Source: Gemmatimonadota bacterium (lineage in GTDB: Bacteria; Gemmatimonadota; Gemmatimonadetes; Longimicrobiales; Longimicrobiaceae). From it: a stretch of 64,000 nt of DNA. Each line of letters begins with the position of its first letter. Position 1 is the first letter of the stretch. This document shows, piece by piece, positions 20,831-36,745 of the stretch. A program made the position numbers and the translations under genes. Location: contig JBFMFL010000004.1 of assembly GCA_040752145.1 (NCBI GenBank), positions 13,031-77,030 on the forward strand, in the 5' to 3' direction. Below the pieces are notes generated by a model. The model was not told where the DNA came from. It did no database searches and worked only from the letters and a program-made list of their open reading frames with translations.

Positions 20831-21268
20831 TCAGCGGTGGGAGCGAGCGTCCAGGCGGAACGCGTGCTCGACGAGCTCGCCGATGCGGAACATGACCCGC
20901 GCATCGGCTGCGGCCTCCTCCTCGCCGCGGAAGCCGGAGTAGCCGCCGACCCGGATGCGGACGAGCGGGGCGCCCTGGTCGTCGTTGTATTCCACCGCCA
21001 GCTCGGCGGAGCCCCTCCAGCCGGCGTTCAACGACGTGTTGACGTCGGTGGCCGTCAGCGACATGAACGCGTACGGGCCCCGCACGGTGGACTCGCGCAT
21101 CCGGTCCGGGTCGAGGCGGCGGAGGTTCCTGGTCGCCAGCAGCTCGTCGGTGAGGCGGGATGCCACCCGCTGCGCGGTCGTCCCGGGGGGGAGGAGCTGC
21201 ACCTGGGTCTCCAGGTCCTGCCGGACGTGCGTGGGCGGGATGGGCTTTTCCTCGGGCTCGCTCATCAT
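20831..21268 (-). CDS. Hypothetical protein (145 aa); last gene of the long minus-strand gene run
   Basis: 'MMSEPEEKPIPPTHVRQDLETQVQLLPPG...'. Its ATG overlaps the stop of the upstream gene (ATGA at 21265-21268). Confidence 0.6.
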   Translation of the reverse strand: MMSEPEEKPIPPTHVRQDLETQVQLLPPGTTAQRVASRLTDELLATRNLRRLDPDRMRESTVRGPYAFMSLTATDVNTSLNAGWRGSAELAVEYNDDQGAPLVRIRVGGYSGFRGEEEAAADARVMFRIGELVEHAFRLDARSHR

Positions 21269-22104
21269 TCCGGGGCGGCGGCGCCGGGGGCGGAGCCAGG
21301 GTCCTGGGGGCCCGCCTCGGCGGCCCGCATTTCCAGCAGGCGCGGGCGGAGCGCGCCGTGGAGCGGGGGAAGGCCGGTCGCGGGCGCGAACACGACCAGG
21401 GTGGTGCGCTTGATCCGTCTGCCGCGGGTGTCCGTCGCGAACCACTCCCAGGCCGGCCGCATCTCGCCGCTCTGGTAGTGCTTGCGCATCCGGTGGCGGA
21501 CGCGGTAGCCGTGGGAGAGGGCATAGGCGATCAGCACCTCGTCGCCGGGCCGAGGACGGTTGAACGAGTCGTCGTCGACCTCGATGCCGATGTGCGCCAG
21601 GGCGTCGCGCCACGCGGAGACGGACGCGCGAACCGTCTCGACGTCGCCCTTGCGGGCGTACTCGATTGCGTGCTCCAGCGCGTCGGCCGTGCCGGTGGGG
21701 ATGTTCCACTGTCCCTTGGCTGCGGCCTTGTCCTGCTCGTCCTGGAGGTAGATGAGCAGATTTTCGAGGAGGTCGGCGTCTCCCTCGGGCCGAACGTCCG
21801 GGTCCCACAGGTCGTCCAGAGCGCCGTTGGTCTCGATCACCAGGTGGTCGCGGCGGACGAGATAGTAGGTGCCGCCGCGGACGTGGAGACAGACCGGGCA
21901 GGGGATCCCGGTCTGCCAGCCGATGAACGGGTCGTAGGCGGCGTCGAGGACATCCGGCGCCCTGGTGACCGTCAGCTCGGAGCCGCACTTGCCGCAGGCG
22001 AGCGGGACGGGGGGCGCGGATGGCGGCGACTGCCGGGATGTGGGCATCGTGTGGTCGATGCGGAGCGGGTGAGGGGGGCCGCGGGGGTTCGCAGGAAGGT
22101 GCAT
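21265..22104 (-). CDS. Hypothetical protein with an N-terminal zinc-ribbon
   Basis: 'CGKCG...(27 aa)...CPVC' is followed by an acidic helical region. Start may be ATG 22047 (MPTSRQ). Confidence 0.6.
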   Translation of the reverse strand: MHLPANPRGPPHPLRIDHTMPTSRQSPPSAPPVPLACGKCGSELTVTRAPDVLDAAYDPFIGWQTGIPCPVCLHVRGGTYYLVRRDHLVIETNGALDDLWDPDVRPEGDADLLENLLIYLQDEQDKAAAKGQWNIPTGTADALEHAIEYARKGDVETVRASVSAWRDALAHIGIEVDDDSFNRPRPGDEVLIAYALSHGYRVRHRMRKHYQSGEMRPAWEWFATDTRGRRIKRTTLVVFAPATGLPPLHGALRPRLLEMRAAEAGPQDPGSAPGAAAPE

Positions 22105-22148
22105 GTTGTGGCTGCGCGGGGGCCGCTGTCAACCCGGAGGAACCGGGC

Positions 22149-22772
22149 CTACAGCCCGCCGGCGAGGGAGGCGCTCACGGAGCGGCCGATCTCCCAGCCG
22201 ATGAGGTGGAGGTCGGGGTAGTCGAGCTCCAGGCCCCGGGCCTCCAGGGCGGTGCCGAAGGCTGCGGCCACGTCCATGGGTGGATAGGTGTGCAGCAGCG
22301 CCGCCACGGCCTCGGCCAGCGCCGGATCGGCGTCGGCGCCGGGTGCCGCGGAGGGATCATCTCCGGTGCCGCGGTCGTCCTCGGCGACGGAGCCGGCGTG
22401 CATGCCGTTCTCTTCCGCGATCTCGGCGAAGACCCGGGTACGGCGGGCGAGCATGCGCAGCTGCTGGAGCTTGCCGTCGGGCTCCCACGCCGCGGGGTGC
22501 GTGAGGGCGTGCGCGATGCGCGCGGCGGCCGCGGCCGCGTACCACGCCTGCCTCGCGGCGTCGGCCCCCCGGCCGATCAGGTCCATGTGGTGTGCGACCG
22601 ATTCCTGGCCGACCTCGGTGGCGGCGCGGGGACCGGCGAGGACCCCCCGCGTCGCGCGAAAAAGCCGCAGGATGGCCAGGCGCGCGTGGCGGGTCGTGGT
22701 GCGGGCGTCGTCGTGGGTGCGGCGCGCGAGGTCGGCGACCTCGGCCGGGTCGACTCCGGGGTGCAGTTCCAT
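22149..22772 (-). CDS. Hypothetical helical protein (207 aa)
   Basis: Normal composition and high GC3. No recognised motif. Confidence 0.55.
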   Translation of the reverse strand: MELHPGVDPAEVADLARRTHDDARTTTRHARLAILRLFRATRGVLAGPRAATEVGQESVAHHMDLIGRGADAARQAWYAAAAAARIAHALTHPAAWEPDGKLQQLRMLARRTRVFAEIAEENGMHAGSVAEDDRGTGDDPSAAPGADADPALAEAVAALLHTYPPMDVAAAFGTALEARGLELDYPDLHLIGWEIGRSVSASLAGGL

Positions 22773-22908
22773 TCGATCGAGCGGGGATGGGGTGTCGGAC
22801 CGCCGGCGCGAGCGGATGTCGTGCTTCGCGGCACCGCGCGGAGGCGTAAGCGGGATGGCGGCCGGCGCGGCTGGCCGAGCGCGCCGGACTCGGGAGCGCC
22901 TGGCGGGG

Positions 22909-23031
22909 TCAGCGGGGCGCCGGCGCCCCGCGGAAGGCGCTGGGCGCGCGGGGCTGCGGCTCCGGCATGCCCTCGCCGGAGGCGAGCTCCGCGAGGTAGT
23001 CGTCGTGGCGGTCGGTGTTCGCGTGCATCAT
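22909..23031 (-). CDS. Mini-ORF (40 aa)
   Basis: 'MMHANTDRHDDYLAELASGEGMPEPQPRAPSAFRGAPAPR'. Every codon ends in G/C. Confidence 0.35.
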   Translation of the reverse strand: MMHANTDRHDDYLAELASGEGMPEPQPRAPSAFRGAPAPR

Positions 23032-23083
23032 AGGCCGTCGGGAAGGGGAGGTGGCGCCGCCGGGGGGCGGCGCCGGTGCGGGG

Positions 23084-23659
23084 TCAGCGGCGGGGGAGCA
23101 GCGTGCGGAAGACGGTGCGCAGGTCGTCGTCGATGGCGGGGACGGGGGAGCCCGGGTCGCGCGGGCACGAGACGACCGTCTGGCCGTCGCGGCTCGTCCA
23201 GGTCCAGCAGGGTCCGTGGGTGCCATCCGCCGCCTCCACGGCCTCCACGCGCCAGCCGCGCGTCTGGGCCACCAGCATCAGGTGGGCGTCCTCCAGGGGA
23301 TCGGGCTTCTGGATGTCGGCGAGGATCCGGTTCATGGCATCGGCGGCCGCGGTGAGGTGCTCGGCGATCACCTCGACGGTTGTCGTGACGCGCATGGCGA
23401 TGTCGGGGCCCATGCCGACGTCGAGCTGGGCCCGGATGGCGGAGAGCAGCGCGGTGTGCGCGATGCGGGCGTCGCGATCCGGGGACTGCTCCAGGAGCAG
23501 GGTGCCGACGGCGAGGACCGCGGCGGCGTGGTCCGACAGCGGGTTGCACTCGGCGTCCCAGGTATCGAGCGCGAGCTGTGTGTGGGCCAGGGCGGCGCCG
23601 GAGGCGAGCAGGCGGGCGAGGAGCGCGCCGTGGCGGCCGCGCGGAGTGTAAGGCGGCAA
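23084..23659 (-). CDS. Hypothetical protein (191 aa)
   Basis: Protein-like composition: a helical N-terminal half and a beta-type C-terminal part ('GPCWTWTSRDGQTVVSCPRD'). Confidence 0.55.
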   Translation of the reverse strand: MPPYTPRGRHGALLARLLASGAALAHTQLALDTWDAECNPLSDHAAAVLAVGTLLLEQSPDRDARIAHTALLSAIRAQLDVGMGPDIAMRVTTTVEVIAEHLTAAADAMNRILADIQKPDPLEDAHLMLVAQTRGWRVEAVEAADGTHGPCWTWTSRDGQTVVSCPRDPGSPVPAIDDDLRTVFRTLLPRR

Positions 23660-23684
23660 GGAAGTCTCCAGAGGTACGTGTGGG

Positions 23685-24110
23685 TCAGATGGGGACCGGG
23701 CGGAACTCGAGGCCGGAGACAGCGATCCGGGTCTCCCCGGGGAAGCGATCCGCGAACCAGGCCGGCGGCGCGTCGACGCATACCTCCAGGGCGAGGTAGT
23801 AGATGGTGCAGGCGTCGTTGCCTTCCTCGATGCGGTAGCCGGTGACCACGCCCGGGCCGAAGCCGTTCAGGGTGACGACGACGCGGGCTCCGATCGCCGG
23901 GACGTCGTGGGGCCCGCTCCAGTTGAGCCCGGGGACGGGGCCGCCGCCGCTGTCCCGCATCAGGTGGAGCGGCTGCGGGACCGCGGACAGGCCGGTGGTC
24001 AGGCCCCGGGGAAGGGCGGCGAAGCCGCCGGGCGGGGGGGTGGTCTCCGCGGAGGGCTGGTCGATGCCGGTGGAGCGGGCGGGGGACGCCGGGTCGCCGC
24101 GCCGGGTCAT
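23685..24110 (-). CDS. Hypothetical protein (141 aa)
   Basis: '...GARVVVTLNGFGPGVVTGYRIEEGNDACTIYYLALEV...'. Its ATG overlaps the upstream stop (ATGA at 24107-24110). Confidence 0.55.
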   Translation of the reverse strand: MTRRGDPASPARSTGIDQPSAETTPPPGGFAALPRGLTTGLSAVPQPLHLMRDSGGGPVPGLNWSGPHDVPAIGARVVVTLNGFGPGVVTGYRIEEGNDACTIYYLALEVCVDAPPAWFADRFPGETRIAVSGLEFRPVPI

Positions 24111-24334
24111 CCCGCCAGCTCCGGATCGCCGACCCGGATGGGCAGCGGCTCGTCGAGCGTCAGCACGCCGTAGGGGAGCGTGCCCAGGGTGGGCACCTCC
24201 ACCGGGTCGTCCGTCAGGATCTCGAAACGCCCGTCGGCGCCGAGGGAGACGGTCAGCTGCTGGAGCCCGCCGGTGTTCGCGCGGTCGATCGTGACGGTCT
24301 CGCCGGCGGCGGCGAGGGTAACCTGTATCTTCAT
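24107..24334 (-). CDS. Hypothetical small beta-rich protein (75 aa)
   Basis: 'MKIQVTLAAAGETVTIDRANTGGLQQLTVSLGADGRFEILTDDPVEV...'. ATGA overlaps at both ends. Confidence 0.55.
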   Translation of the reverse strand: MKIQVTLAAAGETVTIDRANTGGLQQLTVSLGADGRFEILTDDPVEVPTLGTLPYGVLTLDEPLPIRVGDPELAG

Positions 24335-24882
24335 CGGCCTGGATGGTGGGAGGGGCGCGGCAACGCGGCCGCGCCGTGCACGCCGGGCGCGTAGCGGAAG
24401 AACTCGGGCGGCGCATGCGCGTCGTACAGCTCCGCCGCGGTCTCGAACGGCAGCCGGCGGAGCGCGGCCAGCATGGCCTGGCGCTGCAGGTGGCCCCGGC
24501 GGGCGACGGCGGCGTCGTCGGAGTAGCTGTAGCTCCAGTCGTGGGTCTGGACGAGGTGGCGTGCCTCCGCCACGGCGGTCGCCGCCGGGTCGGCGGCTCG
24601 GTAGAGCGCCGCGACGGCGGCCAGCGTCTCGCGGTCCCCGGGCGCGGCTTCGGCCTCGCTGGGATGGGTGATGCGCGCGGACCCGGCGGGCGTCCGGAGC
24701 CGGAGGACTCCGGGGAGGAGAGCGGTTATCTCCACGGCCCCGCCCGTGGCGAGGGTGCCGGTCCACGCCGGTCCGGGGGAGAGGGTGAAGTCGACCGAAG
24801 CCAGCAGCTCGGCGGCGGCAGGGTCGACGAAGGGACGGGGGGACGCGAGTGTGGCGGCGAGGACGGCGGCGAAGCTGGCCAT
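24331..24882 (-). CDS. Hypothetical protein (183 aa)
   Basis: Protein-like composition. No recognised motif. Confidence 0.55.
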   Translation of the reverse strand: MASFAAVLAATLASPRPFVDPAAAELLASVDFTLSPGPAWTGTLATGGAVEITALLPGVLRLRTPAGSARITHPSEAEAAPGDRETLAAVAALYRAADPAATAVAEARHLVQTHDWSYSYSDDAAVARRGHLQRQAMLAALRRLPFETAAELYDAHAPPEFFRYAPGVHGAAALPRPSHHPGR

Positions 24883-24940: not shown

Positions 24941-26218
24941 TCAGGCGAGGGCGAGCTCGATCTGGCGGGGTGGAGCGCCGCGGAGCATGTCGGGCAGGTA
25001 GAGGCGGAGGTCCTGCACGTCGCAGAACTCGAAGGCGGAGCCGCGCAGGTACGTCAGGGCCAGCTCTCCGGCCAGCCACCGGCGGCCGGCCCGCTCGGCC
25101 GCGCGCGCGGTCTTGCCGCTCCCGCTCGCCGGGTCCACGACCAGGTCGCCCGCGTCGGTGAGGAACTCGATGAACCAGGCGGGCAGGGCCTCAGGGAAAC
25201 GGGCGGGATGGGCCGGGATCCCCGCGGCCCGGCAGGCGCGGAGGTAGTACGAGCCGCTGTCGGTGTTGGGGATGTCGAGGAGCGTGCCCGGGATGCTCCC
25301 GCGGTTGCGGCGGGCGAAGGCGCCCGCGGCGAGGCGGTGGCCGCTGGGTCGCACGCCGGCGCGGTCGCCGCCGGAGGCGATGCGTCGCTCCATCGCGGGC
25401 GAGTACGGGCGCAGGACCCTGGTGTTCGATGCCTTCGGGTGCGGCGTCTTCGAGAACCAGAGGCACGGCTCCACCGTCGGCGTGACGCGCTCGCGGCGCA
25501 CGCACACCCACTCGGCCGGGCCGGGGAGCTTCGCCCGGTTGTGCCAGTAGAAGGTCTGGCACTTGAAGAACCCCAGCTCGTCCGCCAGGGCGACCGCGAG
25601 CCGCTCGATGTACAGCGACTGCGCCGGGATCCCCTCCCGCCAGACCTCGCCCAGGTCCAGGACCATGCTTCCGTCCTCCGTGAGCTTGGGCTTCCATGCC
25701 TCCGCGAACCCCAGCGCCCAGCGCACGTGCTCCTTCTCCGGGTGCTGGTTGGCGTAGGGCTTACGGGTCAGCAGGGGGTACGGAAGGGACGTGAAGAGCA
25801 GGTTGACGGAGTCGTCGAGGACGACGCCGGCGGTGTCGTGCAGGTCGCCCCAGAGCATCGTGCCGAGGGCCGTCTCGAAGACGACGCAGACGCACCCGCG
25901 CGGCGCCGGCTGGAGGGCGTCGGCTCCCTGCTCGGTGAGTGCCCACACGCCGTCCTGCGGGCCTCGCACGTACCCGCGGAGCTTCGCCTTCTGCTGGGCC
26001 CACCGGACCCGGTGGGCGAAGTCGTTGACCCGGCGGGTGCCGCCGATCGGCACGGTGGCGGCGCGCTCGGCCGGCGAGAGGTCGAAGCGCTCCGCGAGCG
26101 CGTCGTAGGCGTCCGGGGTCCGGAGGGCGCCGCCGGCGGCCCGGATCTCCTCCAGGAGCGGCAGGACCAGCGCGCCCTGCGAAGGCAGCGAGGACACCGT
26201 CAGAGGCGGAGCTGCCAC
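24941..26218 (-). CDS. Beta-class N4/N6 DNA methyltransferase with an N-terminal Mrr_N-like winged-helix domain; no adjacent endonuclease
   Basis: Motif IV variant 'LLFTSLPYPLL' precedes the SAM motif I 'LVVDPASGSGKTARAAERAGRRW' and 'HPARFPEALPAWFIEF'. This is the PF01555-type order. The N-terminus 'LVLPLLEEIRAAGGALRTPDAYDALAERFDLSPAE...RVRWAQQKAKLRGYV...GVWALTEQG' resembles the Mrr N-terminal domain. Confidence 0.75.
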   Translation of the reverse strand: MAAPPLTVSSLPSQGALVLPLLEEIRAAGGALRTPDAYDALAERFDLSPAERAATVPIGGTRRVNDFAHRVRWAQQKAKLRGYVRGPQDGVWALTEQGADALQPAPRGCVCVVFETALGTMLWGDLHDTAGVVLDDSVNLLFTSLPYPLLTRKPYANQHPEKEHVRWALGFAEAWKPKLTEDGSMVLDLGEVWREGIPAQSLYIERLAVALADELGFFKCQTFYWHNRAKLPGPAEWVCVRRERVTPTVEPCLWFSKTPHPKASNTRVLRPYSPAMERRIASGGDRAGVRPSGHRLAAGAFARRNRGSIPGTLLDIPNTDSGSYYLRACRAAGIPAHPARFPEALPAWFIEFLTDAGDLVVDPASGSGKTARAAERAGRRWLAGELALTYLRGSAFEFCDVQDLRLYLPDMLRGAPPRQIELALA

Positions 26219-26589
26219 GCGACGCCGCCGTAGCTCTGGTCCGCGTGCCGGACGGCGCCCTCGCGTGCGTCCTGGAATCCGGTGTAGCCCGTCGTGGCGC
26301 AGGCGTGCTTGCGGCCGGGGCCGGCGATCTCGTGCGCCCAGGCCCCGTGGTAGGCGACCAGCAGCACGGTGCCGTCGTTGCAGCCGATCATCTCGCGCTC
26401 CGGGCTGGCGGCGGCGGCGAGCGCGTCCTGGACGTGGGCGGTGAGCTTGCCGAGCAGGTCGGCGCGGATGCGGGCCGGCGACGTGGCGCGGGTGGAAACG
26501 CTGGGGATCCCCTCGACGTGGGCGGGCTGGCCGTCCGCGGCCGGGACCACTCTGAAGCGGAGGGAGATCGTGGCGGCGCGGGTGCTCAT
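26200..26589 (-). CDS. Hypothetical protein (129 aa)
   Basis: 'MSTRAATISLRFRVVPAADGQPAHVEGIPSVS...'. Normal composition. Overlaps the MTase start by 19 nt. Confidence 0.5.
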   Translation of the reverse strand: MSTRAATISLRFRVVPAADGQPAHVEGIPSVSTRATSPARIRADLLGKLTAHVQDALAAAASPEREMIGCNDGTVLLVAYHGAWAHEIAGPGRKHACATTGYTGFQDAREGAVRHADQSYGGVAWQLRL

Positions 26590-26609
26590 CGGCGGTGGCT
26601 CGCGTCGGG

Positions 26610-26855
26610 TCAGATGGAGGGGATGCGATCGCGAGGGAAGGCGCGACGCTTCTTCGTGCGGATCCGCTTCAGGAGGCGGCGCTGCCTGGGGGTGAAGCGT
26701 GGGCGATCCGGATCTCCCCAGGAGCCGATGGCGGCTCCCTGCGCTGCCCATTCGAGCGCCGCGGCTTCCATGCGCACGCGGACGTGGTGGGGATGGGTGC
26801 GGCGCAGATTGCGGGTGCCGCGATCCGTGCCCTTCGAGGATGCGGTACGCTGCAT
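26610..26855 (-). CDS. Small basic protein (81 aa)
   Basis: '...WGDPDRPRFTPRQRRLLKRIRTKKRRAFPRDRIPSI'. GC3 bias is moderate. Confidence 0.35.
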   Translation of the reverse strand: MQRTASSKGTDRGTRNLRRTHPHHVRVRMEAAALEWAAQGAAIGSWGDPDRPRFTPRQRRLLKRIRTKKRRAFPRDRIPSI

Positions 26856-26899
26856 CGTTCCGGGGTGGTGGCGGGGGGAAGGGGTGCATCCAGCAGCAG

Positions 26900-27364
26900 C
26901 TACGGGAGGGCGGCGGCCCAGCGGCGGACGTCCCCGAAGCAGTAGGCGGAGCCCGCCGAGAGCGGGCGGTCGTCGGCGTGGCCCTCGGCGTTCGCGACGG
27001 CGAGGGCGGCGCGCCAGTCCGCGCGGTAGACGCGGGCGAGGACCTCGTCCAGCGCCTCGCGGGCGGTGAGCGTGGGGGTGGGCGCGGCGATCCCGAGCTC
27101 GCCTCGCAGCCGGACGAGGAGCGCCTCGATGGTGGTGAAGGTGCGGACGGAGGCGCTCGGCGCTCCGTGCCGGACGGCGCCGAGCAGGAAGGTATTCGCG
27201 GCGACGAGCACGTTGAGGGTGGAGGGCCCCCACTGCGGAGGCGCGTCGGCGTCCGGAATCACGATCTCGCCCTCGTACTCGGGGTCGGACTCGTAGAGCT
27301 TGACCTCGCGGACGGGGATGCCGGCGGCGCGGAGCTGCTCGGCGATGGCGGCCAGTTTGTACAT
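26900..27364 (-). CDS. Hypothetical protein (154 aa)
   Basis: Start at ATG 27364: 'MYKLAAIAEQLRAAGIPVREVKLYESDPEYEGEIVIPDADAPPQWG...'. Confidence 0.55.
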   Translation of the reverse strand: MYKLAAIAEQLRAAGIPVREVKLYESDPEYEGEIVIPDADAPPQWGPSTLNVLVAANTFLLGAVRHGAPSASVRTFTTIEALLVRLRGELGIAAPTPTLTAREALDEVLARVYRADWRAALAVANAEGHADDRPLSAGSAYCFGDVRRWAAALP

Positions 27365-28441: not shown

Positions 28442-28544
28442 CTGGGGCTTCTCATTCGGGGCGGGACGTGTGACTCCACGGCGGGGAGGTGCGGGCGCCC
28501 GCGCGGTCGCGCCCGGGGAGGTGGTCCCCGGGCGCATGTGGTGG

Positions 28545-29255: not shown

Positions 29256-29309
29256 CGGCGGCTCCTGGAGAGAGGGGAGATGGATGCCCTCCCCGTTCTC
29301 CGGAGCGGT

Positions 29310-29706
29310 TTCCCGAGAAGTCGTCGCGGCTGCTGAGGAGGTGGGCGAAGCGGGCGTGCACCTCGGGGGTGGCGAACTGGTAGTGCCGGATCCGGCGGCG
29401 GACGATGTCCACGACGCGGTCGCGGTCGCGGTGGAGCTCGACCTGGTAGAGGTCGGCGTGCTTCCGGCCGCGGGGGGGTGGGGCGGCCTTGTCGTTGATC
29501 CGGCGGTGAAGGGCGGAGCGGAACTCGCGCCGGAAGGCGCCGGCGTCGAGCGGCGCCGTGTTCCAGTGCATCTGGATGGTGCCGCCGCCGTCGACGACCT
29601 GGAACGCGCGGCGGTAGAGGGCGAGCATCGTTCCGGTGTCCCGGTAGCGCCACGGCGTCCAGGCGGGCGGTCCCGGTCGCGGGGCTCGTTCGGAGGTCAC
29701 GGGCAT
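29310..29706 (-). CDS. Hypothetical N-terminal module; its frame has no stop before 28438, so it is probably joined to the nucleotidyltransferase by a 1-nt frameshift near 29307-29314
   Basis: 'MPVTSERAP...WRYRDTGTMLALYRRAFQVVDGGGTIQMHWNTAPLDAGAFRREFRSALHRRIND...RIRHYQFATPEVHARFAHLLSSRDDFSG' has high GC3. The bias then moves to the NTase frame ('APENGEGIHLPSLQEPPMQPT...') at an AAA/GGG run. Confidence 0.45.
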
Positions 29707-29761: not shown

Positions 29762-29959
29762 TCAGGATCCGCCGGTCCAGCGGAGGAGGGCGCCGCGTGT
29801 GCCGGGAAGGAGGTCGTGCCGGAGCAGGAAGGCGCGCACGCCGATGGCGCGGCCGTCCTCCTGCGCGGACTCCAGCACCCGGTCGACGTCGCACGCGCGC
29901 AGGCGCTCCGGCCCGTCCGCGGCCAGGTGGATGTAGCGAAGGGCGTCGGCGCTGCTCAT
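29762..29959 (-). CDS. Hypothetical small protein (65 aa)
   Basis: 'MSSADALRYIHLAADGPERLRACDVDRVLESAQEDGRAIGVRAFLLRH...'. ATGA overlap with the upstream gene. Confidence 0.5.
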   Translation of the reverse strand: MSSADALRYIHLAADGPERLRACDVDRVLESAQEDGRAIGVRAFLLRHDLLPGTRGALLRWTGGS

Positions 29960-30174
29960 GGGGTCGTGTCGGTTCGCGCGGCGCGGAGGGCCGCGGCGCA
30001 CATCGAGCCGCAGACGTGGGTGCCCAGGTCGGCGGCGTGGAACGCGAGGGCGCGGGCCCCGAAGGGCCAGCGGCAGGCGGGGCATCTGCTCGTGTCGTGC
30101 GGCGCCAGCACGCTCACCATGGTGAGGCCGTGGTGACGGGCGCGCGCGGCGAGCAGCTGGGGCAGCGTGGTCAT
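29956..30174 (-). CDS. Small Cys-rich (zinc-ribbon-like) protein (72 aa)
   Basis: '...SRCPACRWPFG...(20 aa)...HVCGSMCAAAL'. ATGA overlaps at both ends. Confidence 0.5.
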   Translation of the reverse strand: MTTLPQLLAARARHHGLTMVSVLAPHDTSRCPACRWPFGARALAFHAADLGTHVCGSMCAAALRAARTDTTP

Positions 30175-30269
30175 GGCACGGGGGGCGAGGGGGCGACGCC
30201 GACCTCGACGCCGGGGTGCGCGGCGGTGATCGAAGCGCCGGGCGCGGTGAGGCCGAGGGTGGCGTTCAT
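30171..30269 (-). CDS. Mini-ORF (32 aa)
   Basis: 'MNATLGLTAPGASITAAHPGVEVGVAPSPPVP'. High GC3, and its stop overlaps the next gene's start. Confidence 0.3.
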   Translation of the reverse strand: MNATLGLTAPGASITAAHPGVEVGVAPSPPVP

Positions 30270-30289: not shown

Positions 30290-30886
30290 TCAGGCCGCAG
30301 CCCGGGCGGCTTCCGGGGCGAAGACCGGTCCGGCGGCGGTGCGGACGATGCTGCCGAGGAGCTCGCCCGTGCTGACGTCGGTGACGACCACGGTGGGGTC
30401 GTGGTCGGGGTTGGGCCGGTCGAAGCGGAGGGTCGCCTCGGGGCGCGCGAGCGTGTCGGCCACCTCGCCGCGGAGGCGGGCCGTCAGGCGGATCGGCGGG
30501 GGGCGCAGGCGGTCCTCCAGCGTCCGGACGTAGGCGCGCAGCCCGGCCAGCAGGGTCCCGGCGGCACGGAGCACGATCGGGTCGCCGCACGCGAGCCTGA
30601 CACGGAGGACGTGTTTGCAGGGCCCCAGGAACGGGGGGCCGCGCCACGCCATGTCGCCGCAATCGCACGCGACGGCGGCGCTCGGGCGCACGTCGACGTA
30701 GTGCGGCTCGCGGCCGCCCGTGACGAGGTAGCGGCCGTCCTCCAGTCGCTCGGCGTCCAGCTCCAGGGCGCGCTCCAGGCGGGCGAGCTCGACGCCGGCG
30801 ACCTGGTGGCCGGAGAAGACGTGGGGCGTGGCGGAGCCCCCCCGGCGGGCGCTCCGCGGGAGCGGGGTGATGTCGGTCGAGCCCAT
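30290..30886 (-). CDS. SWIM zinc-finger protein
   Basis: CxC-x(n)-CxH signature: 'VACDCGDMAWRGPPFLGPCKHVLRVRL'. Confidence 0.65.
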   Translation of the reverse strand: MGSTDITPLPRSARRGGSATPHVFSGHQVAGVELARLERALELDAERLEDGRYLVTGGREPHYVDVRPSAAVACDCGDMAWRGPPFLGPCKHVLRVRLACGDPIVLRAAGTLLAGLRAYVRTLEDRLRPPPIRLTARLRGEVADTLARPEATLRFDRPNPDHDPTVVVTDVSTGELLGSIVRTAAGPVFAPEAARAAA

Positions 30887-31004: not shown

Positions 31005-31208
31005 TCACGGCGAAGCCGGGGCGCCCGGGGTGTCGGTGGGGGGAGGCGGAAGAAAGCGGACCGCGGCGAAGCCCTGCCACCGCCCGTCGACCAGCTCCTG
31101 GCAGAAGGCGTATTCGGCCGGGCGGCCGCGGACGGTGGTGGGGCGGAAAGCCGTACGGCGGAACTCCGGGCCCTCCACGGCCCAGGCCGGAGCCTCCGGG
31201 GCGCTCAC
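31005..31208 (-). CDS. Hypothetical small protein (67 aa)
   Basis: GTG start overlaps the stop of the ThiF-like gene (GTGA at 31205-31208). High GC3: '...RPAEYAFCQELVDGRWQGFAAVRF...'. Confidence 0.4.
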   Translation of the reverse strand: MSAPEAPAWAVEGPEFRRTAFRPTTVRGRPAEYAFCQELVDGRWQGFAAVRFLPPPPTDTPGAPASP

Positions 31209-32008
31209 GCGAGGGCCGCGGCACGTTCGCGCAGGCGGCGGCGGATGCGGTGCTGCTGCTTGATCTCCCGCCATGCCTCGGCCTTGACCGGGATCCTGGA
31301 GTAGATGGCGCCGGCCGGGTCCAGGAACTCGGCGTGGTGGGAGATCTGGCCGAAGCGGAACAGCTGCTCCAGAAGGTTGAGGGCGTGGGTCGCGACCAGG
31401 CGGTTGAGGAACATCCCCTGGCGCTCGATCGACTCGGCCTGGGAGCAGCTGGGCAGGTTGTCGTCGTCGAGGGACGGGTCGATCATGTCCGGGTACAGCT
31501 CGGCCACCATCGGGAGACGCTGTGCCTCGAGGCGGTTGGGGCTGGTGCGCGGCTGGCCGAGGATGTACTGGCCCTTCTGGTCGGTGTTGCCGAGGTCGAG
31601 CCAGTAGATCACGGCGCTATTGTCGATCCGGTCATGGATCACCTGGCGGGCCCCGCGGGTGTCGACGCAGCTGATGACCAGGTCGTAGTCGACGTTTCCG
31701 CCCGTGGGGCTGAGCCGGGTGGGCAGCGCGCGCCAGCGCAGGCCCCAGTACGGGTTGATGCGGTCGATCAGCACCACCGCCTTGTTGGAGCCGACGTCCG
31801 CGGGGGAGAACACCTGGCGGACGCAGTTGGCGGTGGTGACGACGCTCCCGTCCATCGCCGTCACGGAGAGCCCGTGCGGGTGGCCGAGCGCCTTCATCCC
31901 CATGTGCAGGAACGGCAGGCCGGACAGGATGGCCGAGCCGGTGCCGCCGCATCCCACGACGAGAACGCGGACGGCGCGGGTCAGGAGTGCGGGGTGGAGG
32001 AGGTGCAC
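31205..32008 (-). CDS. ThiF/MoeB/E1-like adenylyltransferase (PRTRC-type ThiF family protein)
   Basis: Rossmann motif 'RVLVVGCGGTGSAILSGL', then 'DGSVVTTANCVRQ' and 'DLVISCVDTRGAR'. 267 aa. It directly follows the E2-like gene. Confidence 0.75.
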   Translation of the reverse strand: MHLLHPALLTRAVRVLVVGCGGTGSAILSGLPFLHMGMKALGHPHGLSVTAMDGSVVTTANCVRQVFSPADVGSNKAVVLIDRINPYWGLRWRALPTRLSPTGGNVDYDLVISCVDTRGARQVIHDRIDNSAVIYWLDLGNTDQKGQYILGQPRTSPNRLEAQRLPMVAELYPDMIDPSLDDDNLPSCSQAESIERQGMFLNRLVATHALNLLEQLFRFGQISHHAEFLDPAGAIYSRIPVKAEAWREIKQQHRIRRRLRERAAALA

Positions 32009-32012: not shown

Positions 32013-32723
32013 TCAGGACTCGATGAAGGCGGCGAGGGTCTCGTCGGCGGGCTTGAGGTGCTGCACGGGGAAGCGCTTGCGGCCGGCGAGCGGCTTCCAC
32101 AGCGCGTGGAAGCCCTTCGGGTGCGCGGTGGGGTCGAAGCGCAGCGTGTTGAAGTCGCTGCGGAAGTACCCCGCCTCCCAGGCGGGCATCGCGTCGACGC
32201 CGTGCTCGGACGGGCGCGGCATGGAGCCCATGCAGACGGTCTTGTCCGAGTAGTCGTTGGGGTACGGGGCCAGGAAGAGCGGGGTCTCCGGGGTGGGGGC
32301 GGTGGCGTCGCGGAGCGCGCGCAGCATCAGCTTCCCGTCGACGGCCTTCCAGACGAGGGCCGGGTGGGGGTACATCTTCCCGGACAGCTCGCTGAACGCC
32401 TTGCTGCTGCCCCGGAAGAAGAGCGCCCGCTGGCTGGGCGCGGTCCACCAGACGATGGTGTCGTCCGTGAGGCAGAGCACGTTCGGGGGCAGGTAGCGCC
32501 GGGTCAGCTGGCGGGTGCCGAGCGTCTTGCTGAGGTCGAGCAGGAACGCATGGCTGAGCAGCTGGTGGGGCCCGAGGCTCGCTTTTCCGGCGGCGTGGTG
32601 CTGCACCGGGTGCAGGGTGGCCATGGCGCGGACGCTGCTGCTCCCGCCCTCCCCGGTGTAGAGGAGGAGGCCGCCTGCGAGAGAGAGGCTGGTCTCGCGG
32701 CCGAGGTCGACGGAGCCGGTCAT
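32013..32723 (-). CDS. E2/UBC-like protein (PRTRC protein B-like)
   Basis: 'APYPNDYSDKTVCMGSM' has an HPN-like tripeptide (YPN) and a Cys with the same spacing as canonical UBC 'HPNINSNGSIC'. ATGA overlap with the upstream gene. Confidence 0.6.
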   Translation of the reverse strand: MTGSVDLGRETSLSLAGGLLLYTGEGGSSSVRAMATLHPVQHHAAGKASLGPHQLLSHAFLLDLSKTLGTRQLTRRYLPPNVLCLTDDTIVWWTAPSQRALFFRGSSKAFSELSGKMYPHPALVWKAVDGKLMLRALRDATAPTPETPLFLAPYPNDYSDKTVCMGSMPRPSEHGVDAMPAWEAGYFRSDFNTLRFDPTAHPKGFHALWKPLAGRKRFPVQHLKPADETLAAFIES

Positions 32724-33993
32724 TCGTCGTCGGGTGGCTTGACGTTGGAGTCGTTCTGGGGGGTCCGGTCGAGGATCCGGCTCGCCCCCACGAGGAGGGC
32801 GCAGAGCAGGGCGAGCCGGTCGAATGCGCTCCGGACGCTGGTGGGGTCGTCGGCGCGCATGATGAACAGGGAGGACGGGGGGTGGCTGCCGATCTGCGGC
32901 CAGACCTGGCTGTCCTCGTCCCAGTAGTGCTGGATGACGTCGCCCACCTCGTAGACCGCGAGGAGCGCCGGGAGCACGGGGCCGTCGTAGTAGCGGGAGC
33001 TGTCGAACGGGAGGCAGTCGGGCTCGGCCGTCGCCGCCAGGCGCGCCAGGTCCGCCGCATCCTGGAGGAGCGAGCGCAGATCCGGGGCGAGGGCGGAGCC
33101 GTGGGCGGCGAGGGCGGCCTCGGGCGCGACCGGAGAGCAGTGCATGTAGCCGGGCAGCACTTCGGCCGGGTCGTCCAGGTAGCTCATCCGCTCGGCCAGG
33201 TCTTCCCGGTAGGCTTCGTCGTCCTCGGACCCCGCTTCATCGCCCTCGAACTTCGCTTCCAGGCACTCGAGCTCGCCTTCCAGGCTCTCCTTCTCGCCCT
33301 CGAAGCACGCGAACGCGTCGGCGTGGTCGTAGGTCCGGAGCCAGTTCTCGAAGATGGCCAGGAAGGAGAAGTAGAAGGCGCTGGCGAGGTCGGGCGACAC
33401 CGCCTCGAAGCGCTGCAGCGTCGGCCCCAGCTCCGCGAAGGCGGCGCTGTAGGAGTAGACGCCCAGGTAGAGCGGGTCGCTGACGCCGCCGTCTCCCGTC
33501 CGCTTCTCGAAGCCGTTGTCGATGGCGAGGTGGGAGAGGCGCGCGGAGAGGGAGAAGCGGCGGTCGATCTCCGGGCCGCCGTGGAGCTGGAGCCAGCGGT
33601 CCAGCGTGCGCTGGACGAACTCGGTCGGCGAGCGGTCGCTGGCGAACCAGTCGGCGCCGAGGCCGATGCCGGTCTCCAGCAGGCTGCGGCAGAGCGCGAG
33701 GGAGCGCTCGTTGAGCTCGTGGATGCGGTGGACGACGGGGACGCCGTCCAGCAGCGGCAGGGTCAGAACGGGGGCGGAGCGAGGATCCCCGGGGGCAGGA
33801 ACAGCGGCTGCGACGTCGGGTTGCTGGTGTGCGCGCTGACGGCGCGGAGCAGAAGGTCGGCGGCGCGTTGCGAGTCGGGGCATCGCAGCAGTTCCTGGAC
33901 GATGGGGGTGTTGACGGGGCAGGTGCCCTGCGCGATCGAGTCGATGTCGCGCAGGGCTGCCTCCCGGTCCGGGTCGGGCGGCGCGTCCAGCAC
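32720..33993 (-). CDS. Large acidic helical protein (PRTRC protein F-like), with an apparent 1-nt frameshift near 33770-33774
   Basis: The real N-terminus appears to be the ORF 33763..33993 ('MLDAPPDPDREAALRDIDSIAQGTCPVNTPIVQELL...', high GC3). It runs into the 32720..33883 frame ('...PVLTLPLLDGVPVVHRIHELNE...') at a C5 run. The annotated N-terminus of the latter ORF has poor GC3. Confidence 0.55.
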
Positions 33994-33996
33994 CGT

Positions 33997-34239
33997 TCAG
34001 CCCTTGGAGCCGAGCACGGTGGTGAGGGTGTGCACCCGCTTGTTGCCCTTCACCTCGGGGCCGGAGACCGTGGCGGTGGCGATGTCGGGGTAGCGCGCGG
34101 CGTAGAAGCGCTTCGCCTGCTCGATGTCGGTCTCGCCGGCGGGGAAGGGGAGGGTGGTGCCGTTGTACGAGATCGTGTCGGTGATCTTCTCGACCGTCAC
34201 GCCGCGGCGGGCGGGCTGGATGGTTCCGGTGGTCGGCAT
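33997..34239 (-). CDS. Ubiquitin-like small protein (PRTRC protein C-like)
   Basis: 80 aa: 'MPTTGTIQPARRGVTVEKITDTISYNGTTLPFPAGETDIEQAKRFYAARYPDIATATVSGPEVKGNKRVHTLTTVLGSKG'. It ends in a free C-terminal Gly. Size and position fit the Ubl of E1/E2 cassettes. Confidence 0.6.
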   Translation of the reverse strand: MPTTGTIQPARRGVTVEKITDTISYNGTTLPFPAGETDIEQAKRFYAARYPDIATATVSGPEVKGNKRVHTLTTVLGSKG

Positions 34240-34286: not shown

Positions 34287-34802
34287 TCAGTTCGCCGCGG
34301 CGGCGACGGCGGGCGCGCCCATCACGTCGATCCCGAACAGCGTCAGCTCGCCCGTGTCGGTGGGCTCCCGGGGCCCGCCCTCGTCGGGCACCTCGGTGGC
34401 GATCGCGACGGTGGTGATCGTGGTGGTGCGGGAGGCGGCGGCGCCCGCGGCGGCCCCGGTGCCGGTAGCTCCGGCGGCTCCTCCCGCGGCCTTCTTGGCG
34501 CCCTTGCCTTTCAGCGTGTCGCGCGCGGCCGCCGAGGCGGCGACGACCGCGGCCCTGACCTCGTCCAGCGTGGTCCGCAGGCCGGCGTGCGCCTCGGTGT
34601 ACTCGCCGAGGAGCTGCGGGAGCGCCTCGTCCACCTCGTCGTAGCTGCCGGTGACGAGGAGGGGCTCGCAGAGCGCGGGGTTGTCGTCCTTCGCGAGCTG
34701 CTCGGGGATGACCGCGACCTGGAGCTCGTCCTCGCCGAGCTGGCAGAGGGCGAGCATCACGGGGCGGCCGGTGGCGAGGATCGGGCGGAGTTCCTTGAGC
34801 AT
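34287..34802 (-). CDS. PRTRC protein E-like protein
   Basis: A ~90-aa globular N-terminus ('MLKELRPILATGRPVMLALCQLGEDELQVAVIPEQL...'), then an Ala/Gly/Lys/Thr low-complexity linker and an acidic tail. Confidence 0.5.
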   Translation of the reverse strand: MLKELRPILATGRPVMLALCQLGEDELQVAVIPEQLAKDDNPALCEPLLVTGSYDEVDEALPQLLGEYTEAHAGLRTTLDEVRAAVVAASAAARDTLKGKGAKKAAGGAAGATGTGAAAGAAASRTTTITTVAIATEVPDEGGPREPTDTGELTLFGIDVMGAPAVAAAAN

Positions 34803-34841
34803 TCGGATGTGGCGTTGGGGGGTGCTGGGCCGCGGTGCGGC

Positions 34842-35450
34842 CTAGCGGGAGGTCCAGACGTGGACGTAGCCGCGGTGATCGACGCTGCGCACGTCGGCCG
34901 CGAGCTGGAGCATGGTGCGGCCGATCGGCCACGCGTACGGGGTGAGAGGGTGAAGGGTGATCCCGTCGACGCCGGCGAAGGCGCCGCCGAAGGCGGCCCG
35001 GTGGAGGGCGCGCTGGAGGTCGTGGTCGGAGTCGCCGCGGTGCGCCGCCACCAGGTGCGCGCCGACTCCGGGGGCCTGGGCGAGCCACACCGTGGCGGTC
35101 GTGGGGTGGAAGCTGTGGCGGACGGTGGAGAGGTGGACCCGCGAGGCGGGGATGGCGAGCGGGGTCGCCGGCCGCGGCGGCGACGGGTCCAGCTCCCAGG
35201 CGCCGACGCCGATCGGGGAGACGAGGAATCCGCCGGCGCCGGCGGCGCTCGCGCGGAGAATGGCCACCACGGTGGCGATCCGGGTGCCCGGCGGAAACGC
35301 GGCCAGGCGGTCCACGTGCCCGGGCCGCAGCACGCGGTAGAGGGTCACGGGCGGCCCGAGGCGGGGCGGGCCGCGCGGCTGGAGCGCCGGCGCGGGCGCC
35401 CGTGCCGGCCGGGCGGCGGCCATGGACGGGGGACGTCGGAGGTCGATCAT
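34842..35450 (-). CDS. Hypothetical 202-aa protein in the position expected for PRTRC protein A
   Basis: ATGA overlap with the upstream gene. 'HSFHP' and 'GDSDHD' only loosely resemble a JAB/MPN metalloprotease motif. Confidence 0.4.
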   Translation of the reverse strand: MIDLRRPPSMAAARPARAPAPALQPRGPPRLGPPVTLYRVLRPGHVDRLAAFPPGTRIATVVAILRASAAGAGGFLVSPIGVGAWELDPSPPRPATPLAIPASRVHLSTVRHSFHPTTATVWLAQAPGVGAHLVAAHRGDSDHDLQRALHRAAFGGAFAGVDGITLHPLTPYAWPIGRTMLQLAADVRSVDHRGYVHVWTSR

Positions 35451-36214
35451 GGAGACGGTGCGGCGAGGGCGGGCGCGGGCGCGAGGCGGGGGCGCCGTGG
35501 AGGAAGGGGGATCCGCCGCACGCGTTCTCCCTCCGCGGTTGCCGGAGCGGGGGACGCGGGGGGATCGAAGAGGCTGGGCTGGAGCGACGGGGGTGCGTAG
35601 CGGGCCAGCCAGGCGTGGAGCCGGGCCTGCATCACGCCGGGGGCGCCGCCGCCTTCGATCAGGCGCACCCCGGCCGGGAACCAGCGGTCCGGGAGGGCGA
35701 GCCGGTAGGTCCGCCCCATCGCCAGGTACACCTCGCCGGCGTCCTCCTCGTAGACCGCACGGGGAACCGCGCAGTTGAGGAACCACTTCATGTGCTCGGC
35801 CCGCTCGCGGTCCATCCGCTCGTCGTAGGGCTCGATCAGGTCGGTGGGGCGCAGGAGGCCGTAGCGGGCGCTCAGGATGCGGATCCCGATGTCGGGCACG
35901 GCGTCCACCAGCTGGAGGCGCTTGCACACCCGGAAGAGGATCCCGTCGTAGAGGCTCCAGGCCGGCGCCGGGCCGGCGGAGGCGTGCTTGGTCGCGGAGC
36001 ACGAAAGGATCAGCAGGCCGCGGGACGCAGAGCCGAGCTCGCAGCGGCCGCGGCACCAGCGGCCGAAGGACATGCCCGGGTGGTGCGGGGCGCCGCACCG
36101 CTCGCACGGCGGGCCGGACGCGATCCACTGGCCGGTGGGGCTGCGCGACCAGGTGGTGGGGACGACGTGGCGGTCGACGGCGTAGGCGTAGTCGTTCGGA
36201 GGACGGTAGCGCAT
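35447..36214 (-). CDS. Hypothetical protein with a zinc-ribbon-like N-terminus and a DUF6884-like core
   Basis: 'CERCG...' near the N-terminus. 'LLILSCSATKHASAGPAPAWSLYDGILF...IRILSARYGLLRPTDLIEPYDERM' matches my recollection of the 'CS..K ... ILSA.yGL..p...I.PYD' pattern of DUF6884-type proteins. Unverified. Confidence 0.45.
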   Translation of the reverse strand: MRYRPPNDYAYAVDRHVVPTTWSRSPTGQWIASGPPCERCGAPHHPGMSFGRWCRGRCELGSASRGLLILSCSATKHASAGPAPAWSLYDGILFRVCKRLQLVDAVPDIGIRILSARYGLLRPTDLIEPYDERMDRERAEHMKWFLNCAVPRAVYEEDAGEVYLAMGRTYRLALPDRWFPAGVRLIEGGGAPGVMQARLHAWLARYAPPSLQPSLFDPPASPAPATAEGERVRRIPLPPRRPRLAPAPALAAPSP

Positions 36215-36225
36215 CGGCGGGGGCG

Positions 36226-36489
36226 CTAGTCGGCGTCGGGGCGAGGGGCCGGCAGGGCGGCGGACGGGCGGACGTGGAACTCGTCGGGGCCGGCCTGGAC
36301 GAGCAGGGAGGCGCACGTGTGCTCCACCATCCCGTCGTCGCCCCACCAGACGGCGTGCTTGAGGTGCGCGCAGCCCTTCGCCCCGCAGGGGACGCTCTCG
36401 CCCAGGGCGACGCCGGTGACGTCGCCCGCGGCGGCGACGATCAGCGCGCCGGCCCGGGGGGACGGTGTGGAACTGGAGGCCATTCGCAT
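36226..36489 (-). CDS. Small Cys/His-containing protein (87 aa)
   Basis: '...GESVPCGAKGCAHLKHAVWWGDDGMVEHTCASLLV...'. High GC3. Confidence 0.45.
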   Translation of the reverse strand: MRMASSSTPSPRAGALIVAAAGDVTGVALGESVPCGAKGCAHLKHAVWWGDDGMVEHTCASLLVQAGPDEFHVRPSAALPAPRPDAD

Positions 36490-36508
36490 CCTGGGGGTGG
36501 GGTGCGCG

Positions 36509-36745
36509 TCAGCGCAGCGCGAGCGAGAGGTGCCGGGCGTACACGGAAACCAGGCGCCAGTACATCGCCATCGGGCCCTTCCGCTGCCGCCAGCTCGTCT
36601 CCGCGCGGACGGCGGCGTCGCGGGCCAGGTCCTGGAGGACGGCGCGCATCGCTTCGCGGCTCTCCGGGGGAAGGGCGCCCAGGGCGTGTGCCGCCGGGAG
36701 GGCGAGCACGGGGTTGCGGACGATGGGGGAGCTGGAGCGGAGCAT
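36509..36745 (-). CDS. Hypothetical small protein (78 aa); first gene of the run
   Basis: 'MLRSSSPIVRNPVLALPAAHALGALPPESREAMRAVLQDLARDAAVRAETSWRQRKGPMAMYWRLVSVYARHLSLALR'. Confidence 0.5.
   Translation of the reverse strand: MLRSSSPIVRNPVLALPAAHALGALPPESREAMRAVLQDLARDAAVRAETSWRQRKGPMAMYWRLVSVYARHLSLALR

Follow-up and report, generated by a model that had tools for sequence, protein, structure and literature searches.

A one-directional gene array around a reduced PRTRC ubiquitin-like cassette in a Gemmatimonadota contig

Introduction

To what kind of genetic element would a 15.9-kb run of same-strand genes belong, if it encodes a ubiquitin-like conjugation cassette together with many small proteins and shows no visible mobility gene? 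This question is raised by contig JBFMFL010000004.1 of a Gemmatimonadota bacterium (Longimicrobiaceae; GenBank assembly GCA_040752145.1). Within the 64,000 nucleotides that span positions 13,031 to 77,030 of this contig, which we call the window and to which all coordinates below refer, minus-strand genes follow one another from 36745 to 20831, among them those for a ubiquitin-like protein (Ubl), an E2-like protein and an E1-like protein. An initial annotation, made from the sequence alone, had likened this run to the establishment or anti-defence regions of plasmids and of integrative and conjugative elements (ICEs). Our analysis suggests that the run was probably acquired horizontally as a single operon-like accessory array, such as large plasmids, ICEs and some temperate phages carry, arranged around a reduced form of the cassette known as PRTRC (ParB-Related, ThiF-Related Cassette).

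PRTRC cassettes have been described on plasmids (PMC7466150) and, together with a type IV secretion system (T4SS), on ICEs and genomic islands (PMC3318190), and the type 6d operon class of Iyer, Burroughs & Aravind (2006) was noted as carried by mobile elements. The leading regions with which the run had been compared lie beside the transfer origin (oriT), opposite the relaxase; they use the transferred strand as template, with Frpo/ssi promoters, and are enriched for anti-restriction, anti-CRISPR, SOS-inhibitor, SSB and methyltransferase (MTase) genes (PMC11541004). The supplementary family table of the same study lists small PRTRC_B and PRTRC_E families.

Results

An unbroken run of minus-strand genes

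Because the window has a GC content of ~74%, raw lists of open reading frames (ORFs) were uninformative, and genes were called from a codon-position GC frame plot together with a position-specific likelihood gene call; gene searches covered the 64-kb window. Frame plot and gene call both show minus-strand coding that continues unbroken from 36745 to 20831, so that the roughly 29 co-directional genes described in the initial annotation were borne out. The run contains 26 well-supported genes with intact frames and a G+C content at third codon positions (GC3) of 0.85–0.98, plus three to four doubtful short ORFs (22909–23031, 26610–26852 and 30171–30269). Counted as 29 genes, it is the longest same-strand run of the window, the next two having 12 and 10 genes. 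The intergenic gaps had previously been given as mostly under 140 nt. With the short ORFs counted as genes, none is longer than 136 nt; without them, three gaps of 310–506 nt remain.

All eight start-stop overlaps reported earlier are present, seven ATGA and one GTGA (21265–21268, 24107–24110, 24331–24334, 29956–29959, 30171–30174, 31205–31208, 32720–32723 and 35447–35450). They had also been taken to support the ORFs of 30–80 residues, a conclusion that they bear out only weakly. A or G precedes 43% of all TGA triplets on the run strand, and [A/G]TGA is found at 9 of 24 TGA stops in the run and 13 of 28 outside it (binomial p = 0.79), so an enrichment of such overlaps in the run was rejected. 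Occurring at background frequency, the overlaps lend the small ORFs little support; they fit a tightly packed operon but do not by themselves validate these ORFs. The small ORFs are instead backed by GC3 periodicity and, for two of them (33763–33993 and 31005–31208), also by conservation.

Among 30 candidate proteins of the run, 14 are acidic, 15 have at most 150 residues and a few carry Cys motifs, in line with the small acidic or Cys-rich content described initially. Scans against Pfam, NCBIfam, PHROGs and PADLOC likewise confirmed an orphan MTase, a nucleotidyltransferase (by PHROG only), a SWIM motif and the Ubl/E2/E1 block. Terminator-like sites inside the run are at chance level (5 seen, 2.7 ± 2.0 expected).

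The Ubl/E2/E1 block as a reduced PRTRC cassette

By its family matches, the Ubl/E2/E1 block is the known PRTRC cassette, a reduced form of operon type 6d (Iyer et al. 2006). On annotated plasmids, the canonical order is ParB-E-C-F-B-A-ThiF; in the window, it is E-C-76-residue ORF-F-B-ThiF. Protein E (34287–34802, on the minus strand like every gene of the run) scores 56.9 bits on TIGR03741, with a cut-off of 37.95, and has homologues at a fixed offset in 50–59 related loci. Protein C (33997–34239) is an 80-residue ubiquitin-like protein ending in ...GSKG-COOH, which matches PF14454 (Prok_Ub) with 50.8 bits and TIGR03738 with 47.7 bits (cut-off 45.95). Its C terminus reads G[S/T/V/A]KG in 60/60 homologues and GSKG in 51/60, all of them ending in Gly; since this Gly is already free, a processing peptidase would not be needed for activation.

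Further downstream, the E2-like protein B (32013–32723; Prok-E2_D, PF14460, 107 bits; TIGR03737, 141.2 bits, cut-off 131.45) has a Cys164 that is conserved in 99% of 76 homologues. It abuts, with a gap of 4 nt, the gene of the ThiF-family E1-like adenylyltransferase (31205–32008), which scores 260.7 bits on TIGR03736 (cut-off 144.75) and whose GxGxxG motif and PSCS Cys188 are invariant in the ThiF-family alignment. Its closest relatives are 91% identical on a 3.2-kb metagenome contig (L087) and 62% identical on a 137-kb contig (L001). With the E1 GxGxxG and PSCS Cys, the E2 Cys164 and the Ubl terminus all kept, the cassette looks catalytically intact. ThiF is followed, with the GTGA overlap, by a small ORF of 67 residues (31005–31208), which is 70% identical over 33 residues in L087.

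Between C and B lie a conserved 76-residue ORF (33763–33993; GC3 0.92), which has homologues at the same position in 11–14 loci and 87% identity in L087, and an acidic, predicted all-alpha protein (32720–33766) with same-position homologues in 62–66 loci. The longest-ORF form of the latter has 387 residues, and as the 76-residue ORF overlaps that start, the true start is more likely near 33766. This protein had no direct family hit even at E ≤ 10, and it shares 22–34% identity with the other 36 members of its family and 82% with its close relative in L087. In the family as a whole, 15 of 37 members match TIGR03742 (PRTRC_F) and no other family, with a best E-value of 2.8e-8 and all below the cut-off; together with the position of the gene, these matches lead us to assign the window protein as a putative, divergent PRTRC F. 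Conserved residues include R183, Y185, D189, D315 and D322. An AlphaFold2 single-sequence model of F was unusable, with a pLDDT (predicted local distance difference test) of 43.5.

Three canonical components were searched for without success. No protein of the run or its flanks matched ParB_N or TIGR03734, and a six-frame search of the window with canonical PRTRC ParB found nothing. Protein A, which stands between B and ThiF where the cassette is canonical and which we take as the JAB component of type 6d, had no NCBIfam or Pfam match and no JAMM motif among the run proteins, and canonical A had no tblastn hit in the window. Protein D (TIGR03739) had no run-protein match at E ≤ 0.01, and the annotated canonical examples that we viewed are also without D.

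Compared with canonical PRTRC cassettes (TIGR03734-03742; Aromatoleum aromaticum EbN1 plasmid 1, Rhizorhabdus pDC04 and the Delftia phn island), the window shares ThiF, B, C and E above cut-offs, a putative, divergent F, the order E-C-F-B-ThiF on one strand, the long array and the metal-resistance cargo beside it. It differs in the absent ParB, A and D, in the extra 76-residue ORF between C and F and in B abutting ThiF; it also has no T4SS, relaxase or partition genes nearby, and its proteins are 33–44% identical to the proteobacterial plasmid versions. With respect to type 6d, four of the five components are present (Ubl, E2-like, E1-like and the alpha-helical protein) and JAB is missing. The features of the class seen here are the C-terminal Gly of the Ubl, the E2 Cys and an alpha-helical protein that diverges rapidly around conserved charged residues. 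No solved structural relative of PRTRC proteins was detectable by sequence, B and F being without relatives in the PDB, and the E1 profile gave only marginal matches to Cap2 (E ~2e-4), ThiF and MoeB.

A conserved core within a variable array

With E ≤ 1e-10 as the threshold, the ThiF family counts 2,673 proteins. Among 185,579 reference genomes we found 516 relatives with a best identity of 52%; the best 80 of these 516 come nearly all from Acidobacteriota metagenome-assembled genomes (MAGs), at ≤52% identity and often with several copies per genome. Several Acidobacteriota MAGs (e.g. JALHNH010000074/45/7; JAFKEE010000023) hold two to three separate reduced cores, sometimes on the same contig, which suggests repeated acquisition or several resident elements.

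For a synteny comparison, every window protein was searched by tblastn against 86 loci with up to 10 kb of flank on each side. Homologues were found for E in 50 loci, C in 65, the small ORF in 11, F in 66, B in 80 and ThiF in all 86, in every case sharing one strand and keeping constant offsets. For the other genes of the run the count was zero, bar one weak partial hit of the MTase and weak hits of the first gene, g36509, in L001 and its two duplicate contigs; from outside the run, g41577 matched L001 weakly. Lack of co-localisation in other genomes had been named at the outset as an argument against a joint region: the six-gene core does co-localise, and the other run genes do not. The core thus behaves as a co-localised unit in these comparisons and the rest of the run as a mosaic.

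Protein A had no tblastn homologue in ~84 related loci, and PRTRC ParB was found in only one to three. With A absent from these loci and ParB from nearly all of them, the reduced architecture is best read as a stable variant, not a local deletion. Recurrent neighbours of the related cores include an SNF2-like helicase, a DUF6094 methyltransferase, DUF2201/VWA with a MoxR-like AAA ATPase, Sipho_Gp157 and TSCPD, all of which differ from the genes of the window.

In L001, protein E is fused to the C terminus of a 608-residue PAPS-reductase-like protein (5755–7581 of that contig), and on the Aromatoleum plasmid a PAPS-reductase family gene stands one gene after ThiF. L001 also carries DpdA, RadC (JAB-fold), a ComM-like ATPase and ParB. 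The fusion and these neighbours hint at a link of the cassette to nucleic-acid modification chemistry.

Composition sets the run apart

All 26 genes of the run have a C-rich third codon position, with a GC3 skew of −0.11 to −0.46 (mean −0.31), as compared to −0.03 ± 0.13 outside the island (Mann-Whitney p ~1e-8). As this distinctive bias is found in every run gene and not in the neighbouring genes, it marks the run as one foreign block. The same C-rich bias is present in the 91% relative L087, while the mean GC3 skew of PRTRC cores in 76 loci is 0.00. We therefore rejected the skew as a signature of the transferred strand, or of single-stranded DNA deamination, that would be general to PRTRC arrays; being common to L087 but not to PRTRC loci, it appears to be a codon-usage trait of a lineage.

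Two genes at the left edge of the window, ~19 kb from the run, show the same C-rich bias: 6–512 (minus strand), a truncated gene of unknown type, and 680–2095 (minus strand), which encodes a C5 cytosine DNA methyltransferase. On plasmid pDC04, a homologue of the 6–512 protein (23069–23476) is the immediate downstream neighbour of the PRTRC array. These genes may belong to the same or a sister element, and their bias hints that the element was once larger or was rearranged.

Carriers of the cassette and of the methyltransferase

The initial annotation had reported no relaxase, T4SS, integrase, replication initiator or ParB, and this was upheld: family scans of the sizeable ORFs of the 64-kb window found none of these families, nor did the six-frame search for ParB. 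The window also has no tRNA and no Rfam family, and direct repeats resembling att sites occurred only as chance-level matches. Virion, packaging and lysis genes are absent from the run, where PHROG families match only the MTase, the nucleotidyltransferase and proteins of unknown-function families, and from its flanks.

Elsewhere, homologues of the PRTRC ThiF are found on 353 plasmids, of which 186 are non-mobilizable, 97 conjugative and 70 mobilizable and which include Pseudomonas megaplasmids, as well as in 5 of 50,697 phage records, some of them temperate phages. On canonical PRTRC plasmids, the cassette lies in same-strand arrays of small hypothetical genes that extend over 25–40 kb; that of Aromatoleum plasmid 1 spans ~25 kb with more than 30 same-strand genes, mostly small hypotheticals. 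On pDC04, the cassette stands beside ars/czc cargo, ~21–29 kb from the TraD/relaxase end.

The solitary MTase of the run (24941–26197) combines an Mrr_N domain (PF14338, 55 bits) with an N6/N4 DNA methyltransferase domain (PF01555, 86 bits) and scores 266 bits on the PADLOC Type II MTase model PDLC03323. It is oriented like the rest of the array, and no PADLOC restriction endonuclease (REase) model matched its neighbouring genes; its role would probably be self-protective methylation. Homologues occur on 2,267 plasmids, of which 1,881 (83%) are conjugative. A metagenome scan with the MTase as an anchor in the middle of the run returned no relatives.

One member of the MTase family is found on the IncC plasmid pYULZMPS10, in a same-strand array between repA and tra that covers ~40 kb and more than 55 genes, most of them small hypotheticals, and encodes a C5-MTase in addition to the homologue, which is 32% identical to ours. 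Unlike the window, this replicon has ParA/ParB/KorB, an integrase and a conjugation backbone, and it has no PRTRC. Beyond the MTase, only the left-edge C5-MTase of the window (680–2095) matches it, weakly. Judged by these sequences, a long one-directional array of small genes is a familiar setting for PRTRC and for this MTase on large plasmids. The run as a whole had no match among plasmids by megablast.

A metal-resistance cluster encoding a CDF transporter, an RND pump of the CzcCBA type, an ArsR regulator and a P-type ATPase adjoins the island at 45370–56764. On pDC04 and on Deinococcus ficus pDFI1, PRTRC likewise has czc/ars/P-type ATPase cargo at its side.

Ends of the run and flanking modules

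At the head of the run, an AT-rich putative promoter region (36860–36930, minus strand; local GC ~0.46–0.60) lies before a divergent gene for a TPR protein. It holds elements resembling TTTACA...CACAAT and TTGGTG-17-TAGCAT; a consensus scan gave no strict sigma-70 match. Downstream of it, ~75 nt upstream of the first ATG, is a terminator-like leader hairpin of 10 bp (36820–36853, minus strand), of which nine pairs are GC and which is followed by a run of seven T; it could act as an attenuator or antitermination target, or mark where a small RNA ends. The run closes with a GC-rich hairpin of 13–14 bp (20748–20777, minus strand) followed by TTTCGCATT, 53 nt past the last stop codon. No Frpo-like single-stranded hairpin is evident at the head, as the plus strand folded as single-stranded DNA has z = −1.69, with 8 of 100 shuffles as stable.

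The run is bracketed by a degenerate inverted duplication of flanking modules with ~74% nucleotide identity. The right module (36934–41437, plus strand), divergent from the run, encodes a TPR protein, an AraC-type helix-turn-helix (HTH) protein, a 146-residue HTH-like protein and a 273-residue protein (Pfam TPR_12, HTH_18), the last of which had no match among plasmids. The left module (16724–19956, minus strand), its inverted paralogue, encodes a 274-residue protein, a TPR protein and a 146-residue HTH-like protein. Identity between the modules is 62.5% for the 274-residue proteins, 72% for the HTH-like proteins and 28–36% for the TPR proteins, and a third TPR copy lies inside the run (27452–28441, minus strand; TPR_12, 41 bits), 36% and 28% identical to g36934 and g17909. 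Both modules have lower GC and a GC3 skew of the opposite sign to that of the run; they may regulate the array, or be host genes on either side of its insertion site. Adjoining them, 14400–16700 and 41900–44700 show a weak or ambiguous coding signal and lower GC, and may represent decayed genes, or junction DNA bordering what was acquired.

Other genes of the run

Upstream of the cassette, the run opens with a 78-residue basic orphan (36509–36745) that has a strong GC3 signal and matches twice, with 39 bits, the 275-residue protein after ThiF in L001. It is followed by an 85-residue orphan with three Cys (36226–36483), found by the gene call and without family or homologue, and by a 255-residue DUF6884-family protein (35447–36214; Pfam PF21818, 44 bits; phrog_5935; PADLOC candidate family PDC-M57A, 31 bits). 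A 202-residue basic orphan (34842–35450), joined to the upstream gene by an ATGA overlap and again without family or homologue, occupies the place of ParB in canonical cassettes.

Downstream of the cassette lies a 198-residue SWIM zinc-finger protein (30290–30886) with a CDCGx15CKH (CxCx15CxH) motif, a weak match to phrog_17897 and no homologue; its AlphaFold2 single-sequence model was unusable (pLDDT 38.4). Three short ATGA-linked ORFs of 65 residues, 72 residues with four Cys and a doubtful 32 residues (29762–30269) have no homologues. They are followed by a 150-residue basic orphan (29257–29706), whose frame stays open without a stop until 28438. The coding signal leaves this frame near 29300, and a nucleotidyltransferase-like gene with an ATG at 29255 and AGGAG upstream takes over in another frame; the stop-less frame of 28438–29706 points to a frameshift, to decay at the end of the gene or to an error of assembly. 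The nucleotidyltransferase-like protein itself (28545–29255; 236 residues) matches phrog_4400 with 41.5 bits and phrog_1614 ('nucleotidyltransferase') with 35.4 bits, and has no Pfam match and no plasmid homologue.

Between the internal TPR gene and the MTase are orphans of 129 and 154 residues and a doubtful 80-residue ORF (26610–26852; pI 12), which were found by the gene call and have no homologue (26200–27364). The distal block (20831–24882; GC3 0.91–0.95) consists of eight orphans of 145, 279, 207, possibly 40, 191, 141, 75 and 183 residues, with three ATGA overlaps. For at least 16 proteins of the run, homologues are absent or very rare. When 16 orphans were joined into two concatenated queries, they had no match at E ≤ 1e-3 among 5.8 billion proteins, the sensitivity of this search being limited by its word prefilter and by E-values scaled to 5.8 billion sequences. 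For the largest orphan, g21265, HMMER was run exhaustively against 1.84 billion representatives and yielded no more than two distant clusters, 39% and 32% identical.

One homologue of g21265 lies in a 7-kb metagenome contig (L093, 1–7127), in which TPR and CI-type HTH genes are divergent from a same-strand array of small orphans. That array has chained 4-nt overlaps and ends with a large ParB-family gene. The layout matches that of the window, and apart from g21265 the two have no gene in common.

Discussion

We propose that the run is probably one horizontally acquired, operon-like accessory array of a plasmid, ICE or temperate phage type around a reduced PRTRC cassette. This reading is supported by the carriers of PRTRC, by the plasmids that carry the MTase, by the similar arrays on plasmids and by the foreign composition. 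The array would start at the AT-rich region at ~36.9 kb, divergent from the TPR/HTH regulators, and end at the hairpin at 20.75–20.78 kb. Apart from the core it would be a mosaic, in which at least 16 lineage-restricted orphans accompany a plasmid-type solitary MTase, a nucleotidyltransferase and proteins of the DUF6884, SWIM and TPR types. Most likely it helps to maintain or establish a mobile element, or serves in conflicts among elements. Of the initial proposal of an establishment or anti-defence region, the mobile-element-type accessory array thus stands; the specific part finds no support, as the run has no known anti-defence family and no evident Frpo-like hairpin (z = −1.7).

By analogy with E1/E2 family chemistry, the ThiF-like E1 would adenylate the exposed C-terminal Gly80 of the 80-residue Ubl, which would then be handed to Cys164 of the E2-like protein B and attached to some target, with F and E as candidate accessory or specificity factors. 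As the JAB peptidase is absent, no enzyme encoded by the cassette would reverse the conjugation. A more far-reaching idea, which we consider a long shot, is that the core without JAB and ParB, widespread in Acidobacteriota, forms a distinct class performing irreversible Ubl conjugation under divergent TPR/HTH control, which would modify proteins of the host or of rival elements at establishment, the orphans being a reservoir of new anti-defence or host-takeover proteins.

Several points weigh against our proposal. No mobility, integration or replication gene, tRNA or att repeat defines an element in the window. The single transcript is inferred from spacing and the absence of strong internal terminators alone, and every step of the mechanism comes by analogy from other E1/E2 systems. 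In 36 Acidobacteriota loci, crude ORF calling puts the median same-strand run around ThiF at 4 genes, and the array architecture is thus not universal. A 2026 paper states that the function of PRTRC 'has not been studied' (PMC13366799). In addition, the stop-less ORF and the absent ParB and JAB are compatible with a decaying remnant.

That last point leads to a different history, in which the run is a functionless remnant of a former plasmid or ICE that has lost ParB, JAB and its backbone and drifts in the chromosome. The absence of backbone genes, ParB and A/JAB from the window, the ORF without a stop codon, a codon bias that has not been ameliorated and the genes of like bias at the left edge, 19 kb away, which suggest rearrangement, would all fit. 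We nevertheless find it improbable: 26 genes have kept intact frames with high GC3, E1 and E2 retain their catalytic residues and the Ubl its terminus, an architecture without JAB and mostly without ParB recurs in ~80 loci of other phyla as a stable variant, and L087 retains the small ORFs. That the run is a genuine leading region, belonging to an ICE or to a conjugative plasmid that has integrated, with oriT, relaxase and T4SS outside the window and early expression from the incoming strand to establish the element and against host defences, strikes us as unlikely, though less so than decay. The uniform orientation, the many small orphans and the solitary MTase of a plasmid family fit the published description (Samuel et al. 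2024, PMC11541004), whose supplementary table also holds the small PRTRC_B and PRTRC_E families; the MTase family is found mostly on conjugative plasmids, and the array has metal-resistance cargo next to it, as is seen on PRTRC plasmids. On the MOBF plasmid pDC04, moreover, the PRTRC array at the distance from the TraD/relaxase end given above is on the strand of the oriT-proximal small genes, the place of oriT being inferred. In the window, however, neither relaxase nor T4SS was found within 64 kb, leaving the run without an oriT context, and Pfam, NCBIfam, PHROG and PADLOC revealed no ArdA, KlcA, PsiB, SSB, anti-CRISPR or other anti-defence family in the run, nor a known anti-restriction or SOS-inhibitor gene. 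The head shows no evident extended hairpin of the Frpo/ssi type, more than half of the PRTRC plasmids are non-mobilizable, PRTRC also occurs on phages, and the strand-specific C-rich third position, not being general to PRTRC arrays, provides no transfer-strand signature.

A defence island, in which PRTRC would attach its Ubl to proteins of an invader in the manner of Bil or CBASS-Cap2 and the MTase would be part of a restriction-modification system, we judge to be about as improbable as a decayed remnant. Bil, Bub and CBASS type II with Cap2/Cap3 do share the logic of Ubl, E1 and E2 and the carriage by mobile or variable loci; CBASS type II and Bil are antiphage, and Bub operons are found in mobile elements and defence loci (PMC11601596). 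The MTase also matches a PADLOC Type II model, and the DUF6884 protein a PADLOC candidate family. Against this, no PADLOC model fits ThiF, B, C, E or F, the sole NCBIfam trace of such defence systems is one of 14.7 bits to the 6A-MBL cap2_3 model, the similarity to Cap2 is marginal, and no neighbour of the MTase matches an REase model. The window also encodes no JAB peptidase, although all characterised bacterial Ubl defence pathways encode one (PMC11601596), and the carriers of the cassette are themselves plasmids, ICEs and phages. Least probable of all would be a prophage or phage-plasmid, with the run as its early or accessory region. The PRTRC ThiF does occur in five phage records, PHROG families match the MTase, nucleotidyltransferase and DUF6884 proteins, and the homologue of g21265 sits downstream of a CI-type repressor; yet families of capsid, portal, terminase, tail, lysis or integrase proteins are absent from the whole window, and those five records, out of 50,697, stand against 353 plasmids.

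With an accessory array of a mobile element as the favoured interpretation, the locus does not establish any anti-defence activity, and it is no better as an experimental entry point than canonical cassettes in culturable hosts. PRTRC, or type 6d, has been catalogued since 2006 and is abundant, and the same 2026 paper describes it as functionally unstudied. What is new here is that the reduced form without JAB and ParB appears as a stable architecture across phyla, and that the six-gene core alone seems to be the selectable unit, surrounded by an array that would be a fast-turnover mosaic of orphans. These points narrow down what a functional experiment must include, and argue against ParB-linked partitioning as the essential role of the cassette.

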